A DNA stretch of 63,971 bases, the filler included, from Circinaria calcarea (lineage: Eukaryota), in assembly GCA_051942165.1 (NCBI GenBank). It is 4 parts of 4 records of this genome, joined end to end, with 100 filler letters (N's around TTAATTAATTAA, not from the genome) between each part and the next. Parts side by side here need not be neighbours in the genome. Positions count along the whole stretch, not along the records: positions 1 to 16,555 come from JAVECS010000316.1; 3 more parts are not named here. One strand, given 5' to 3'. Every line of letters begins with the position of its first letter. Position 1 is the first letter of the stretch. This document shows, in pieces, positions 7,315 to 49,960 of this stretch. Below the pieces are notes generated by a model, which was not told the origin of the DNA, ran no database searches, and saw nothing but the letters and a program-made list of their open reading frames with translations. The position numbers and the translations under genes are program-made.

Positions 7315-9479
7315 TCAAGATGGATGTTGAGTAGTGCGGATTGAAAGATACAATATAGAAACAACAGCAAGAGCTATAGCCGCCATAGGATCGCGCACAG
7401 ATCTCCATTCCGGGAAAGAAAAGATGAGAATTCCTAGCGTTATCAAGTTGCCCCAAAGCCGTACTGGGGATAATGCAATATGTTTGGTATCGGATCTCTT
7501 ACCTGTGCTGGAGCTTTGGTAAAGTGGGTTTCCTTTGTGTGAATCCGTTCCAGATTTTGCTGCTAATTCAAGACCTGCCAGAGATTCACGAAGCACAGTT
7601 GCCTTCAGTCCACGAGCCAAATCCGAGGGCATGTTTCCGTTTTCGTCCGGTGACAGAAGGATTTCACTGTCCCCTAAAGCCACTATTTTTCTGGCTGCTG
7701 CCAAATTCCCCCACCTCGCAGCACAATGTAACACAGTCTGAGATGAGTTGTCCTTGGCATGAAGATCTTCACCATTAGCATGGAGCAGGTCAATAGTCTC
7801 CAATCTCTTGCTTTGCACCGCATAATGAAGAGCCGTACGCCCTTTATTATCTGCCCTCTGAACCTCAGTTGAGCTGGCTCTTTCAAGAAGGTATCGAAGA
7901 AGGCTAACATTCCCCCTGGATGCGGCAAGATGTAGACAAGTCCTTCCGAAGCCATCCACGGACCACAAGTCGGCAGAATCATGTGCAATGCCTCGTTCGA
8001 ATAGCTCGGGGGTGCTCTTGCTGCTCCATGCTAGAAAATGAGTAATCGACATTCCCTGAGAATCTGGAAATGTGACCTCGATCCAGTCATCCCGCAAAAG
8101 GACCTTTTCGACGGTGTCACTGAAAAACGTGTGCAATGGGGTCCTACCGTCGACCGTGTTATTTGCAAGATCCGCGCCATTCTCAATTAGCAGTCTCACA
8201 GTATCGTAGTTGCCTTTCCTAGCCATCGCCCAATGGAGTGGTGTGTCTCCGTCTCCATCTTGAGCGTTCAAGTCTCCACCTTCCTGGATGAGCAATCGTA
8301 TTAGCTCAATGTTCCTGGTCTTAGAAGCCAAATGTAGCAGCGTGGTGCCGTGGATTGTAACATCCCTTGATGTTGCTCTGCCGGCACCGAGCATACGTTG
8401 TACACCCTCTACTGACCCCTCTTCTACGCATCGCATAATTTCTGCGCTTCGAGGAATGGTCCTAGGGCAGTCGATATCCCAATAGAAAGTGAGTCTCACT
8501 CGGGATAGGAAGGACGCTTGAACCAGGTACAGAGCTATATCAAGTCTTCTACGGCAAAGCTTTGATAAACTCAATGACAAACCAAGCCCAAATCCGGTTT
8601 GACGATAATGCGGTGGGAATCGGGCTTGTTGCTTTCTGTTCAAGTTCGGCATGATGGCCGGACCCAGCCGAAGTGCAAAGTCACAGAATAGGAAGCTCCA
8701 CCGTTGTATAAATGTGACTCTGATTGAAGATGATGGTGAAAACGATGCTGGAACACCAAGGATAGCAACATCGCTGGACTTGGCACAATGGCCGAGGGGT
8801 CCTGGAGAATGGGGTGTTCCAGTTGCCGGGTATTCGTAAAAAGGTAATGACTGAGATAGTCGCGGCGCCCCAGCTACACTTGAGGAAGACGGCGCCAAAG
8901 CTGAGGCTGTTATCACCGACTCTGGCGGAACCATCGACGGTGTTGGAGATCCGTTGATGGTCCTGCAATCTAACCTTAGCCCTTATGACTTTCCGAGTCT
9001 CCTTGAACCCCAGGTGGAACTTACGTCAGCAGCATGAGAAGTTCTAGAAAGAATTCATTTTGATATAATTTGACTTTCTCCAGAAACTTCCTTGTTTCTT
9101 GCTCTCCAATTAGCAGCCATCTTACCCTCTCCCATGATCTCCTTGCTTTGCCATCCCAGTCACGTTTACAGCTCTTTTTTACGCCAAATCTGGCATCAAT
9201 CTTGCCTATCTTGACCTCAAAGGTTTTCAAGTCGTTCAAGCACTGATTGAGCCTATGGCAGAAATGCGTCGAGAACTTATACTTCGGATCTAGCTCCGTG
9301 CCACTTTGTTGAAGGTTGGTCATGGTTATATGTAACGAGTCTAATGCTAACAAGGACTCATGTACATTGGCTGGCATAGACGCGATCCCACGAAAAAATT
9401 TGAACATAGTTCTGCTGGACTCAGCAACAAAACTGACCACGGCTAGGACTGACGCGGTGGTGGAAAGAGGTTCGGCCAT
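7315..9479 (-). CDS. HeLo-like (fungal STAND N-terminal-type) domain + ankyrin repeats + C-terminal TM helices, ~700 aa; exons 9479-9025, 8962-7315
   Basis: The N-terminus MAEPLSTTASVLAVVSF...WERVRWLL...FLEKVKLYQ is typical of fungal HeLo-like/SesA-class N-terminal domains. The intron GTAAGT...GCTAAG...TGCAG (9024-8963) restores the frame. Multiple G.TxLHxA ankyrin repeats, then a hydrophobic C-terminus (LITLGILIF, AIALAVVSILYL). Confidence 0.8.
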
Positions 9480-10113
9480 GCTGGCGCTTCCTACTTCAAA
9501 GATTCCAATAATGCAAGTGGAGTGGAAAGCAACCGTTCGAAAAGAGCAATCCAAAACTCAATAGGGCTACAGTAGGCAGCACCGCATATATGTTGTGATC
9601 TCAAGCTATAGCCTGAGTCCAATTTTATAGAGGCTATGCTATTGCAAAGAGTAAGGCTTAGCAACGACGTCTACTTCCCGATCAAGGCCTCCAATAGTAC
9701 AGTCAGTGCAGTGCAGAGCTTCACCCTGTCAAGGCAGTCCAGTGCAGAGCCCATGCTGTACTGCACCAGCTAGTGGAGGTCTTACTTTTCATATTAGTTC
9801 CGAGTCGATGTGTCGTTCAGTTCGACTGTTATCACGTCTGTACACAGCCACTATTGTACAGGGGGAATCTAGGGCTGTGTACCAAAGTATAAACAACGTC
9901 GTACAAGATGCGGGGTATGCCGGCAGGCAGAGCGTCCCTTTCCTTTCTCAAATCCTTCCTACTTCATTCAAGATAGTATGTACACTCCTGGTGAAGCCTC
10001 ACTGCAGCCACTCTGTTAATATTCTGTGGACTATTTTCGCAACGACGTTGTTCCAGGAAAGTGTCAGCGCATACCCATTGGATCAGTAACAGCTCGCGGT
10101 CAGCCTATGAGAG

Positions 10114-10463
10114 ATGCCCTCAAGCGCAAACCCTCCAGCAGGCTCCACTGAGGAAACAACCTACACTATATCAGACGGAGTGTACTACTTCCGAAGCGGT
10201 ATGTGCCCGAGTCTTTGCCACCTGAAATGCACCTTCATTTCGCTCTTAGCTGAAGTCTTCCATTATATACAGGAAAGTGGCGGCGTGGGGAGATCAGAGG
10301 CGAAGGAGGCAGCAGCGATACCTCTAAAAGATATTTGGTAAGGCCCTTCCTGCACTTAAGTGGTTGATAACCATCACTCATAGCATTGATACAGGTTAAG
10401 GATATCGATAAAGGCGAAGAATACATAGCGGACATACATGATATTCGAAAAATTCCTGCATAA
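10114..10463 (+). CDS. 72-aa Tudor/SH3-fold microprotein; exons 10114-10198, 10273-10337, 10395-10463
   Basis: Introns GTATGT...TACAG (10199-10272) and GTAAGG...TACAG (10338-10394) give the open frame MPSSANPPAGSTEETTYTISDGVYYFRSGKWRRGEIRGEGGSSDTSKRYLVKDIDKGEEYIADIHDIRKIPA*. This resembles the Tudor consensus (G.WxRa.I ... V.fvDyG..e.v...dIr.lp). Confidence 0.65.
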
Positions 10464-10669
10464 TCGACCTTTAGCGACTCACTACGGCTTAAGAAAAAGG
10501 CACACCCGACTACAGCACCTTCCACTTACAACTCCTGGGCTAAAAGGTTTACCATTTTGCCTCCTTCCGCGGTTGTGTGTCTTTCGTTCACACTCGTCTT
10601 GGATAGAATATACTTCACCCCTGAAAATTACTCCAGTAGCCTTCATCCGGACAACTGATATAGCCCAAG

Positions 10670-13600
10670 ATGATGAAAAGTTCTTCATCAGCATTTGAAT
10701 CTGTCGGCGGTCGTTCACTCCATGAGCTCCTTCAACAACATCTCGCAGAAAATAAAAATTACGAGGGCAGGAGTTTTATGTGTAGGGCAACAGTTGAGCA
10801 GCTGCTAACTTACGAACGAGTTTCCGGCTGGATAGACAATCATCCAATCAGTCAAGGCTCGAACATTTACAACCAAGATCTGATTACCTATATCGTCGAC
10901 AAATCTCGCATACTTTTTGCTATATTAGTAATGGCAAAACTCGAGCATCTTATATCCGCCTTTTTCTCGAAACGCCTAAGCGATGATTCACTCCCCGAGA
11001 TCGATTGCAGCTTCTTGGGCTTAAGCCACGACGAACAGCGTAGGCTTGATAAATATCGTCATCTTGTTGGTCCAGTTTTCGGGATGAACAAGCACCTATA
11101 TCTGTCCCAAGAAACTATATTGCCATTTGTGAAGAGGGGATCGATCAACAAAAATGGATCGTTCGGTCAGATATTTTATGCCGAGGTTGCAGATGGTCAT
11201 CTGAAGGGCTATAACAAGGTATAACGCCAGCTATGCATCTGAAGACATGAAAATTGCTAACGGTACGCAGAGCAGAGTCGCGGAGAAACTTATTCGTTTA
11301 GACAAGCCTGACAATGAGCAAAGCGCCCTCCGCGAAATAAACACTCTTCGACAAAGACAACATCCTAATATCGTCCCTCTGTTAGCATCATACACTTTGA
11401 AAACGGTGGAGTCAGAAGTTGCCGTGAAAACCTTGCATCTGATATTACCGCTTGCTGAAATGGATCTGGCAGACTGGATGGTCCTTCCTCAACCGCCGGA
11501 TTGGCTTCAAGAGCTGCCAAGACCGGAACGCCGGGCATGTTTATATCGCTTCATATATGCACTTGTGTCAGCCCTTTCGTTTCTTCACCGCGAGAAGGAT
11601 GGTATGGTCACAGCACACCATGACATGAAACCGGGGAATATCCTGGTATTCGAGCAAGAATTGAAGATCGCTGATTTCGGACGCTCGCACATTCGCCCTT
11701 TGGTCAAAGGTTCGGAAACTGAGGCCGCCTCGGGGTTGGGAACATATGAATATCACCCACCTGAATACTGGAAGGATAATGGATACCGTGCAGAAGAAAA
11801 GCACGGACGCGCGTTCGATGTTTGGTCTATGGGTTGCATTATCATCGAGATTGCAATTCTGACTGTCTATGGTTGGGGACCCGGGAAAGTCACCGAATTT
11901 AGAAATCAAAGGGGAGATAATTCAAAGAAAGAAAGGCCTATGCTCGCCGCTCGGCAGCTCGCCGCTCGGCACACTCCCGATTATTCTTTTCACAACAACT
12001 GGGCCGTAGTCGAAGATTGGATCGAACGTTTACAGATTGAAGATGGTAGCTCGAAATTGAAGTCGACATTGAAAGTAGCTACGCAGATGATGACTCAAAC
12101 GCCTAGCAGCCGCTTGTATGCATGGGAGGCTGAGTTGGATCTACACAATATACAACAACCTGACGACGATCGAATCACGCGGTTGGAGGAAGGAGCTCTG
12201 TGTGTTCAACCTCCACCACTGCAAAGAAAGATACTCAACGGCACGCAGACGCCTCTGCATAGGGCTGCACAGAACGGGGACACAGAAAGACTTGTCCAAC
12301 TTTTTGAAGCTAAATGGTCGCTATTTGTGCAAGATCATGAAGGTTTGACGGCGTTAGATGTGTTCAAACAGAGCCAGAAACGTTCCTTATATGATTACCT
12401 ATGCACGCGTCTGGCTCCGAAGACAATAGAGAAAACAACAAATGGAGAACAGGGCCGAAAGCTGCTTCAGGCTGCAACGAGAGGCCAGACTGACGTGGTC
12501 CTGGATCTGTTAACCCAGGGAGTGAACGCCATGTTTGTTAGCGAAGAAGGTCATTCGGCTCTGTACAAAGCAGTTTTATATGGCCAATTGAGTGTAGTTG
12601 AATGCCTCTTACGAGCTAAGGGGAAGGACCTACTGCGACTGAAAGACGTTCGGTCGGGTGACACGCCTCTGCATAAAGCTGCCTCGTTAGGCGACGCGAC
12701 TATTATCAAACAGCTATTAGCAAATTCTCCCGAAATCGAAGCCCAACAAATGGAAGGGAAGACCGCACTATTCCTTGCGGCTGAATGGGGCCGCGAGGAA
12801 GCTGTCGAAGTCCTTTTAGGTTATGGCGCGCAAGTTAACACCCAACAAAACTGGGGAGGAGGAACCCCGCTTCATGCTGCAGTGAAAGGAAACAAAATCA
12901 AAGTTCTCGAGCGGCTTCTCGGAGCTGATGACGCTGGCAAGTGTCTTGAGCATAAGAATAGGTCTGGCGACACCCCGTTATGGCTTGCGCTCTTTCACAA
13001 GCATTTTGAATGTGCCCAGATCTTGCTCAACAATGGAGCCTCATTGCATATTGCTGAAAATGACGGTAATGCCGTACTCCATGTCACCGTAACGAGAGGC
13101 TTGCATGACTTTCTAAAGGAGAATATACGCCAATTTCGCCGGGATGATATACAACGCACGATCAAACTTGGCGAAGAAGGCAGAATTGGGTTCCAAACCG
13201 TTTCTTCTCAACTTTCACATTCCACGGGTCAATTGAGCGACGAGACTAAAGCTGGCTTCCAGATGGTTTCGTCCCAGCTTGCCGGTGCTGTGTCAACGCG
13301 AGAAGCAAAGAACCTGGAGGCGCTCAACCGCTCAGACGATCTTACACAGAATGGAAACCTCAATTCTCAAAAGCTGGATGAAGTTTTCCAGCAACAGGGT
13401 AGGGTTATTCATGTGAGTGAAGTGGGTCTCCAAGCCGTCCACTCCAGCCTCATGAGGAAAGGGCACAAGGTGACTCAAGCTTTGTTGAGTCAATACGGCG
13501 CCCAATTAGACCAAATCACAAGGATCTTGGGGACGGGTGGACACAGTGTATATTCGACATCAAAACGTCTTGAAGCACCGCATCTCACTACTATGGAGAC

Positions 13601-15734
13601 CTCTATGTTCTGGAGATTTTTCTCCTACAGCTTGCCTATCGGAAATTTGAACATCGCACGTCAAAGTATACGCTCGAAGCGCTCAGCTTCACAAGATCAC
13701 ACAGAGTGGAAAATCGCGGTAAACTTTGTGCCACCGTGGTGGTTATCTAGTTTCGCGGTGCGATATGTTATGAAGCTTGATCACGATTTGATTGGTGACC
13801 AATGGCGCTGGGGCGCGAGCTTGAATCCTCTGACAATCAATCATGACCCTTTTTTTCTCAAAGCTGCTAGAGATTGTGTCGTTGAAGGTGTACAGGAATC
13901 TTTCCGGAAAGGTCTAGCCCGAAAAACAGACTACGTCTTGGATCCATGGGGTGAACCACAACCATGGCAAATAGTTAGTCTCCCTTGCAACCGTTGATAA
14001 TGACGTGCTGAGTATGTCATTCAGTCACTCGTGTGGAGACACCGTGGAGATTCCTGCTATCGGGCACTTTCGATGTTTGGGTGTATGACAAAGGAAGGAA
14101 TCCCAAATGAGTAAGTGGATTTAAAAATGCAAGATTGGTATTTCCTGATATACTCTAGGGAACACGTTTTGTTCTGGATCTCACGAGTTGTCGATGCTAC
14201 AACTTCCCATAAAACTCTCCGAGGTCAATTAAACACCTATGCAGAATATGGCGGTGATCTTTTTAAAGGAAACTGTTCTGTTATTAGATGGTTGTTCATA
14301 AATGGCCCTGGTACTACTGATTGGGTTCTGGACTTGTTATCCCATCCATTTAAGTCGTCTGAACCATTGGTGATAGATGACCTCTCACCGTTTGCAATTT
14401 GCCTTATTGGTATCTTGGCCCACGCGGATACCAAGTTTCGAAGCCTGCTAAAGGAATATCTGGCTAGCTACCGTTCGCCGCTCCTTTGTTCTTCAGCTCA
14501 CGCAACGGACCAACTGTTTAGATCTACATTCAACATAGATTCCATCTTAACCCACTTTCGCAATTTGGAACCAGACCTGAGATGTGACTTATTAGCAATA
14601 TTATGCAAAGCCGGCTCGCCTTCAATGCTGAAACCTTTTATGGACATTGGGATTGATATCAATGATGATTCCGGTAACACCAACATGCTAGCAAATGCAG
14701 CAGCGGCGGGGAATACTGAAATTGTCTCCATGCTTCTGGACGCTGGTGCGAACGGCGCTTTAGCCATCAATGGATTCCTGCATAGGAGTCAATGCCTCCC
14801 TGAGGCGCGCTTCAAAGGACTTCTCCAATTATTAGTGGAAAAAGCTAGACCTCCGGTATCCGAGCATTCGTTCAGAGACCCGTTGAACGCAATCCTCAAG
14901 TCAAGCAGAGCACTCTCGCTTTGCCCTGAGGCGCCAGAGATCCTTCTCAGCCAGGGAGCGTTCTCCCACGAACTATTATTTGGGGGAATTGCCAGCTTTA
15001 GCTCGAGTTATATGTTTCAGGCTATTACAATGAGGGATGATAACCTGATGGAGTTGCTTTTGAAGCAGGGGGCACTTTTCGGCGCACAGATTGATAATTT
15101 GTTTTGCTATGCAGATGGGTTCAGTTCATATACCTGGTTGACTTTCTCTATTCTCTGTGGCGCTGCATCTTGTGTCAGCATTCTTATTAGTCATGGAGCG
15201 GATGTTGCTGCTCCGGACGGATCTGGCAGGTCTGCAATTCAAATCGCCAAATCTAACGCGGTGGCTTCCCATCCTCGCAATTGGAAGTCCAACTGGTTAC
15301 GCCTGCCTAAAGTCACTGCTGAGAAAGATGCCAGGACTCTAGCTGTGGTGAAGCAAGCCTTCGACCTCAAGTTTCAGGGCACCGAAAACTTCGAAGACTA
15401 CATTGACTCCAGCGGTCAGATTGACTATCATCCACCCACGCGGCGAGAAAAATTCACATCCACTATTCAAAGGGCTCACGAAATGATCCTTGGGTTCATC
15501 TTCACCCGTTTCATTCCTCACGAAGTGTGGAACCTCTGGCGTTTATCATTCTTCGAAGCTTTACTGGTGAGGTCCATCTACGTCCTGTCATATTTCCTGC
15601 TCTTCGCCGTCGAAGCGGTCGCCTTTGCTACAGGCCAGAAACCCATCCCGAAACCCTCGAGGACCTTTCTTTCAGCAGTGGCGGTGCTGATGCTGGCGAT
15701 TATCTGGGGTGGCTTTTTTCACTTTGGGACATGA
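10670..15734 (+). CDS. Ser/Thr protein kinase + ankyrin repeats + linker domain + second ankyrin block + C-terminal TM, ~1637 aa; exons 10670-11218, 11271-13973, 14025-14110, 14159-15734
   Basis: Kinase motifs GSFGQIF, VAEK, HPNIVPL, HHDMKPGNIL, DFG, GTYEYHPPE and DVWSMGCI. TPLH ankyrin repeats follow. Three GT-AG introns join the ORFs in frame. Two hydrophobic C-terminal segments. Confidence 0.85.
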
Positions 15735-16555: not shown

Positions 16556-16655
16556 NNNNNNNNNNNNNNNNNNNNNNNNNNNNNNNNNNNNNNNNNNNNT
16601 TAATTAATTAANNNNNNNNNNNNNNNNNNNNNNNNNNNNNNNNNNNNNNNNNNNN
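16556..16655. other. Artificial contig linker N44-TTAATTAATTAA-N44
   Basis: Exactly 100 nt with a six-frame-stop 12-mer in the middle; identical to the two other gaps. Confidence 0.97.
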
Positions 16656-33208: not shown

Positions 33209-33308
33209 NNNNNNNNNNNNNNNNNNNNNNNNNNNNNNNNNNNNNNNNNNNNTTAATTAATTAANNNNNNNNNNNNNNNNNNNNNNNNNNNNNNNNNNNN
33301 NNNNNNNN
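33209..33308. other. Artificial contig linker N44-TTAATTAATTAA-N44
   Basis: Same 100-nt structure as the other two gaps. Confidence 0.97.
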
Positions 33309-49860: not shown

Positions 49861-49960
49861 NNNNNNNNNNNNNNNNNNNNNNNNNNNNNNNNNNNNNNNN
49901 NNNNTTAATTAATTAANNNNNNNNNNNNNNNNNNNNNNNNNNNNNNNNNNNNNNNNNNNN
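49861..49960. other. Artificial contig linker N44-TTAATTAATTAA-N44
   Basis: Same 100-nt structure as the other two gaps. Confidence 0.97.

Follow-up and report, generated by a model that had tools for sequence, protein, structure and literature searches.

A three-exon gene between two ankyrin-protein genes

The analysed window, 63,971 nucleotides of the Circinaria calcarea genome, is fungal DNA; its introns are short and of the GT..AG type, and it encodes Est1, NUP159, a kinase-ankyrin protein and a PigL_N-ankyrin protein. Filler joints between its parts, at 16556–16655, 33209–33308 and 49861–49960, appear as six runs of 44 N, arranged in three pairs about 16.65 kb apart with 12 bases within each pair. 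A small gene on the plus strand, upstream of the kinase-ankyrin gene, runs from an ATG at 10114 to a TAA at 10463. Its three exons join into a frame of 219 nt that encodes 72 residues and a stop codon.

Exon 1 (10114–10198), which is covered by RNA contigs, carries the ATG, residues 1–28 and the first base of codon 29. It is followed by intron 1 (10199–10272; 74 nt, GTATGT..CAG, phase 1). Exon 2 (10273–10337) encodes residues 29–51, including the GKWR.GE[IV] strand and the GGSS..S.RY.V hairpin. Intron 2 (10338–10394; 57 nt, GTAAGG..CAG, phase 0) is in frame, yet holds a TGA and a TAA stop. Exon 3 (10395–10463), defined by the frame and by RNA contigs, encodes residues 52–72 and the TAA stop. 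The predicted product has a mass of 8.0 kDa and a pI of 5.7; it is mildly acidic and cysteine-free, and is therefore typical neither of nucleic-acid binders nor of secreted peptides.

In the stop-to-stop ORF list this gene is split into three unconnected pieces (10111–10341, 10254–10367 and 10371–10463), as the first-pass annotation had pointed out when it proposed a hidden three-exon gene using the acceptor at 10272. The frame does join with that acceptor, and the coordinates and peptide stretches given there are correct on the joined frame; splicing to the other candidate acceptor, 10249, disrupts the reading frame. An ATG in another frame, 7 nt before the start and 10 nt past 10097, where contigs appear to begin, opens 14 codons (10107–10151, TGA at 10149–10151). 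The ATG at 10114 is favoured as the start because the N-terminus of the family described below is conserved. No second copy of the microprotein was found in the window (next best tblastn E 0.28), and an Rfam scan of 9400–10800 gave no match at E ≤ 1.

RNA contigs were obtained from the biocrust metatranscriptomes of one study, in which an index search pointed to two runs (shares 0.10 and 0.06), taken together with a third (X1–X3). When aligned to 9000–14500 at 88% likeness, four contigs in X1, seven in X2 and none in X3 fit the region. Their identity is 90–99%, so they come from a close relative other than the source organism. Both predicted joints are present, exactly as proposed and in two runs of the one study. 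The joint at 10197/10272 (74 nt skipped, GT..AG) is seen in one X1 contig and two X2 contigs, and the joint at 10336/10394 (57 nt skipped, GT..AG) in one contig each of X1 and X2. No contig uses the acceptor at 10249, and the GT..AG ends on the plus strand fix the direction of the transcript.

Exon 2 has no difference from the relative's X1 record 1. Six in-frame differences from the relative are listed, with 26 more across the 5.5-kb stretch beyond those listed. Of the six, one alters residue 5 and five fall in exon 3, all at third codon positions (four silent, one Asp to Glu), for which the chance is about (1/3)^5.

Assembled contigs show neither strand, ends nor level. Two X2 contigs (records 6 and 7) begin at 10097 with no loose letters, which weakly hints at a minimal 5' leader of 10097–10113. 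On the other side, the X1 and X2 contigs extend 27–45 letters beyond the stop codon and end about 40 letters after it, where their sequence departs from that of the window (loose ends at 10490 and 10472), giving a minimal 3' untranslated part of 10464–10507; no RNA contig covers about 10510–10655. Since contigs cannot prove transcript ends, these ends are a weak hint that the microprotein has a short mRNA of its own. We regard it as established, or very nearly so, that the locus codes for a protein, has two short introns and gives a short spliced mRNA.

A family of unnamed reading frames

The family searches were run with pieces of the window and with homologues rather than with the joined 72-residue product. 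A word-indexed protein search gave no candidate for the exon-1 frame or for exons 2–3 read via intron 2, a Pfam scan of the window pieces gave no match, and phmmer searches of the PDB with exon 3 and with the homologue P0011 gave none either. With P0001 as the query, which is 10272–10460 read through the in-frame intron 2 with X at its two stops, HMMER was run in full against 1.84 billion representatives. Five proteins were found at E ≤ 1e-3, of which four are true relatives (P0002, P0004, P0005 and P0006; E 3.7e-10 to 9.3e-4), all of them intron read-throughs. The fifth, P0003, is a repeat protein aligned to the intron-coded part of the query, and was rejected.

Scored with a profile of the relatives, 10 of 495 candidates reached E ≤ 1; eight are read-throughs and two are spliced. 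The two clean spliced forms are P0011 (73 aa, on two contigs) and P0013 (70 aa, on five contigs), the latter being the spliced version of the P0005 group. The window product is identical to P0011 at 43 of 73 positions (59%) and to P0013 at 38 of 72 (53%), over the full length and with at most two gaps. All three proteins start and finish at the same conserved places, which bears out the proposal of a stand-alone microprotein. The read-throughs carry foreign residues at precisely the positions of the two window introns, one after the R-x-G of strand 1 and the other after R-Y-x-V; the intron-1 place is interrupted in P0002, P0005, P0010, P0012, P0014 and P0015.

Conservation was counted over 12 to 14 sequences for exons 1 and 2 and over five for exon 3. 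On this basis, 19 positions are invariant (M1, S3, P7, P8, E13, Y17, D21, V23, Y25, G29, K30, W31, G34, G41, S43, S46, R48, Y49 and V51) and two are nearly so (R27 in 11 of 12 sequences and R32 in 12 of 13). Exon 2 is the most conserved part of the family. The N-terminus reads M-[PS]-S-x-P-x-P-P in all 12 family sequences that hold that end. The sequences fall into two groups, one with S-K-R-Y (the window product, P0011, P0002 and P0004) and one with S-P-R-Y (10 of 14). The frame is preserved in at least 11 distinct sequences, as are its start, its end and the positions of both introns. A degenerate pattern for exon 3 matched once in the window and not at all in 100 shuffles, and found no stretch in metagenome contigs.

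The family members are unnamed ORF calls from ENA, Logan or JGI contigs, with none from NCBI or UniProt. The only named ones, P0014 and P0015 (JGI), are each called 'hypothetical protein'; both are wrong models that read through intron 1 and end in intron 2. Public annotation appears to have missed the family because the gene is tiny and split. Among the papers listed for fungal Tudor and Agenet proteins, unannotated small ORFs, fungal annotation and bicistronic transcripts, none deals with such a family. Judging from protein searches that are non-exhaustive, this looks like a conserved fungal family that is apparently unannotated.

A Royal-family barrel and its nearest branch

Two homologues were modelled with AlphaFold2. 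The model of P0011, built from an 11-row family alignment, has a mean pLDDT of 88.3 and a pTM of 0.75. It is composed of strands 22–27, 30–42, 47–53 and 61–64, a 3-10 turn and a last strand 68–71, and residues 11–20 score 91. The model of P0013 (12 rows; pLDDT 87.5, pTM 0.70) has the same strand order. By DSSP and by structural alignment (Z up to 9.2), both homologues are five-stranded SH3-type barrels of about 55–60 residues. The first-pass annotation had proposed a Tudor/SH3 fold from the sequence pattern, a proposal that a non-barrel prediction would have overturned; the models, of proteins that share 59% and 53% of their residues with the window product, are in agreement with it.

In a structure search of 48,161 representative chains, six reached Z ≥ 8, and all six are Royal-family domains: Tbtudor (8.9; 1.8 Å over 58 residues), the MRG15 chromo-barrel (8.9), PWWP (8.4), SAWADEE (8.3), RBBP1 (8.1) and MRG701 (8.0). 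The next matches (Agenet, SGF29, PHF19, TDRD3, SMN, 53BP1 and R67 DHFR) have Z of 7.3–7.7. By the aligner's own caution, a best Z of 7–8 is common for models with no true match. Re-alignment of the best 997 Foldseek chains gave 26 at Z ≥ 8, the best being MRG2 at 9.2. The best Foldseek E-values are 2.3e-2 and 5.5e-3, none at or below 1e-3, with TM to target of up to 0.85. We assign the fold to the Royal family despite these weak scores because every high-scoring match belongs to the same fold class and the whole domain is covered. Language-model features in the ESM Atlas also lead only to small SH3-type barrels (0.88–0.91, to be read as leads).

By homology with the two modelled proteins, we infer that the window protein is one Royal-family (Tudor/Agenet-like) barrel. 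In both homologue models a conserved proline arm of the R-P-x-P-P type packs on the barrel, and the corresponding arm of the window protein presumably does the same. A prediction of two P0013 copies as a homodimer scored 0.00 against a mark of 0.32, which gives no answer on dimerisation.

Pfam places the family in no Tudor-type entry above cut-off. P0011 matches no family at E ≤ 10, no match to Agenet (PF05641) was found at E ≤ 10 among the members scanned, and the only match of a Tudor type at E ≤ 10 among 15 members is a weak one to Hva1_TUDOR. A profile made of the two spliced proteins and the three window exons, when searched against the PDB, matched residues 215–247 of 7yt9_A (AtAGDP3 AGD1-4) with E 0.11. 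With P0002 added, the match has E 0.017 and 18.6 bits, which is borderline, over profile positions 4–38 of 73. The alignment sets the R-P-x-P-P arm, D-R-V, F-R and W-R-x-G against the first part of the fourth Agenet domain. Foldseek, too, lists this PDB entry, at rank 5 and with 27% identity over 66 columns, the highest in the list. In addition, the Agenet, SAWADEE and SGF29 matches reach model residue 8–10, whereas Tudor matches reach only 14–16. Kinship with Agenet domains is thus probable but unproven. In sequence the family is new, in fold it is not, and the window protein is the first member to be described here.

The kinase gene downstream, the ligand mouth and related barrels

The ATG of the kinase-ankyrin gene, at 10670, lies 207 nt after the microprotein stop codon on the same strand. 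Exon 1 of this separate gene is 10670–11218; it is followed by an intron of 52 nt (11219–11270) with a CTAAC branch, which is removed in X1 and X2 contigs. The relative's kinase contig has different first residues and an ATG of its own near its start (loose end before 10699), so the microprotein and kinase frames are not fused. The 183-residue N-terminal domain of the kinase has no Pfam match, and a search with it found one distant locus (31% identity) among 143 pattern matches; no relative of the microprotein was found at that locus, L001 (best tblastn E 0.54).

Further along the kinase-ankyrin frame, one X2 contig skips 53 nt (13066–13118, GT..AG), a joint by which the frame would change and the protein would stop shortly past the ankyrin repeats. 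This joint was not used: it is seen in one contig, its short side is 30 letters and the next 202 letters are unlike the window, so the contig may come from another organism or a paralogue. The divergent neighbour on the minus strand (7315–9557) encodes an N-terminal PigL_N domain (PF17111, E 1.7e-07) followed by ankyrin repeats, and is separated from the microprotein ATG, on its upstream side, by about 635 nt. Together with the kinase-ankyrin gene and an ankyrin frame at 14115–15734, it looks like part of a STAND-like gene cluster.

The order on one strand, with 207 nt from the stop at 10463 to the kinase ATG, raises the question of whether the kinase-ankyrin mRNA includes the microprotein frame as its first cistron, or as a long conserved upstream ORF whose translation tunes the kinase. 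Bicistronic transcripts are reported for fungi, and the spliced homologues lie on Logan contigs of up to 3,534 nt (P0011) and 3,819 nt (P0013), many times the length of an mRNA of 280 nt. Long contigs can, however, be merged neighbours. The two contigs that start at 10097 and the ends about 40 nt past the stop in both runs speak, weakly, for a separate transcript, and in the relative the kinase contig shows a separate ATG within a few letters of where it begins. Moreover, a folded, conserved domain of 72 residues is a protein in its own right on any transcript. We therefore consider a first cistron to be a minority possibility, though a serious one, and prefer a gene with its own product. A functional tie of that product to the kinase is possible, position being what suggests it.

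The protein has no catalytic features and would work as a free-standing binding module. Its invariant residues cluster where the ligand mouth of Tudor-type domains would be, namely in the turn between strands 1 and 2 (Y-Y-[FY]-R-x-G-K-W-R) and in the hairpin G-G-S-S-x-x-S-x-R-Y. A hand alignment to the Tudor pattern, as we take it to be, puts R27, R32, D/E53 and Y60 (Arg in P0013) at the four cage positions. In this alignment the classical four-aromatic methyl-lysine cage appears to be replaced by two arginines, invariant or nearly so, and an acidic residue. A degenerate cage is thus plausible from the sequence, in line with the doubt about methyl-lysine reading that had been raised at first pass.

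Instead of methyl-lysine, the expected ligand would be nucleic acid or a peptide that is unmodified, acidic or phosphorylated, since the cage aromatics appear to be exchanged for arginines and an acidic residue. The basic and acidic residues at the mouth, with the G-G-S-S-x-x-S hairpin, suggest such an unmodified, acidic or phosphorylated partner. The serine-rich hairpin, with Ser-Pro in 10 of 14 sequences, may itself be a phosphorylation site. By analogy, the non-reading Agenet domains of AGDP3 would be comparable: a preprint (10.1101/2021.03.08.434320) describes the AGD34 cassette as lacking cage residues and H3K9me2 binding. We are fairly confident of the reading as a whole, that is, a spliced gene encoding a Royal-family barrel (the fold coming from homologues) of a missed conserved fungal family that acts as a cage-less binding module.

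Reading methyl-lysine or methyl-arginine is what most domains of the Tudor, chromo-barrel, PWWP and Agenet types do. The best structural matches are all readers of this kind, many of them solved with methylated peptides, and the family has conserved aromatics in Y24, Y25, F/Y26, W31 and Y49. A canonical reader is unlikely nonetheless: the cage places appear to be held by the residues named above, in sequence the family comes closest to an Agenet domain from the cassette that does not read H3K9me2, and neither a nuclear signal nor a partner domain is seen.

A small metabolic or cofactor-binding barrel, an oligomer binding NADP(H) in the manner of Cryptococcus Hva1 or R67 DHFR, has the same architecture, a free-standing barrel of about 70–80 residues. 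R67 DHFR is at Foldseek rank 2 (TM to target 0.77; Z 7.5–7.8), and in language-model features P0013 is nearest to DHFR_2 at 0.90, but such scores arise by chance in 4–10 of 100 shuffled proteins. P0013 also scores 13.2 bits (E 0.1) to Hva1_TUDOR (PF11160), but it is the only one of 15 members to do so and falls below the cut-off of 24.1 bits. The Hva1 structure 4P5N is absent among the best 50 matches of each structure search. The Hva1 paper (PMC5008624) compares Hva1 with 2RK1, 4BD3 and 3PNW, all of which are also among the structural matches listed here. On balance, a metabolic role seems improbable, and we retain the binding module as the preferred reading.

A more specific version of the binding module would pair Agenet-like free barrels with STAND-type kinase-ankyrin genes, possibly bicistronically, as gatekeeper or substrate. 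The hairpin would then be phosphorylated by the kinase, or the barrel would hold the N-terminal domain of the kinase. This is a speculative idea to which we give little weight. To our knowledge, Agenet is a domain type that has so far been treated as plant-specific.

Finally, a non-functional locus, a spliced non-coding or recently born transcript with a frame open by chance, would fit the lack of protein-level evidence and of a Pfam family, but it is very improbable, as the conservation of frame, ends and intron places in at least 11 sequences and the 19 invariant positions already contradict a chance-open frame, the exon-3 substitutions against the relative lie at third codon positions, and two members are modelled with pLDDT above 87.

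The gene provides a worked case of a real, conserved, multi-exon microprotein gene overlooked by gene callers: among about 15 billion public proteins, its family is present only as unnamed raw ORF calls, mostly wrong intron read-throughs. With it, the Tudor 'Royal family' gains a free-standing, probably cage-less fungal member, and there is a hint of a link with plant Agenet domains. Barrels of this fold are widespread, and it is no surprise that small genes go unnoticed; a conserved free Agenet-like barrel beside a fungal kinase gene is a testable lead. The protein is small and easily expressed, and its partner could shed light on the poorly understood kinase-ankyrin genes of filamentous fungi.

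Among known systems, R67 type II dihydrofolate reductase (PF06442) is likewise a free SH3-type barrel (78 residues; TM to target 0.75–0.78). R67 is an enzyme of bacterial plasmids that acts as a homotetramer around a central active-site pore, and the likeness to the fungal protein is one of fold alone, with no sequence relation shown. Hva1 of Cryptococcus neoformans (PF11160, 4P5N) is also a small free-standing fungal Tudor-like barrel and is the closest free-standing analogue; its function is reported to lie in NADPH-related metabolism and not in chromatin (PMC5008624).

The Tudor and chromo-barrel domains (Tbtudor 6if4, MRG15 2f5k, MRG2 4pl6, PHF1/PHF19, TDRD3 and UHRF1) are likewise barrels of five strands in which a short 3-10 turn precedes the final strand, and superimpose with Z of 8–9.2 and rmsd of 1.5–2.1 Å over 54–58 residues. 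The fungal protein differs from them in standing alone, in its low identity (7–18%), in having no Pfam match and, by the hand alignment, in probably lacking the classical cage.

Plant Agenet domains form tandem cassettes in large proteins, whereas the fungal protein is a single free domain of 70–73 residues with no Pfam Agenet match. However, those of AGDP3 and AGDP1/ADCP1 (7yt9, 7yta, 5zwz and 6ie5) have the same barrel together with an N-terminal arm, covering model residues 8/9–73 with Z of 7.7–7.9. They show the highest identities among the structural matches (27% and 20%), and AGD4 of AtAGDP3 is the sole meaningful profile match in the PDB.
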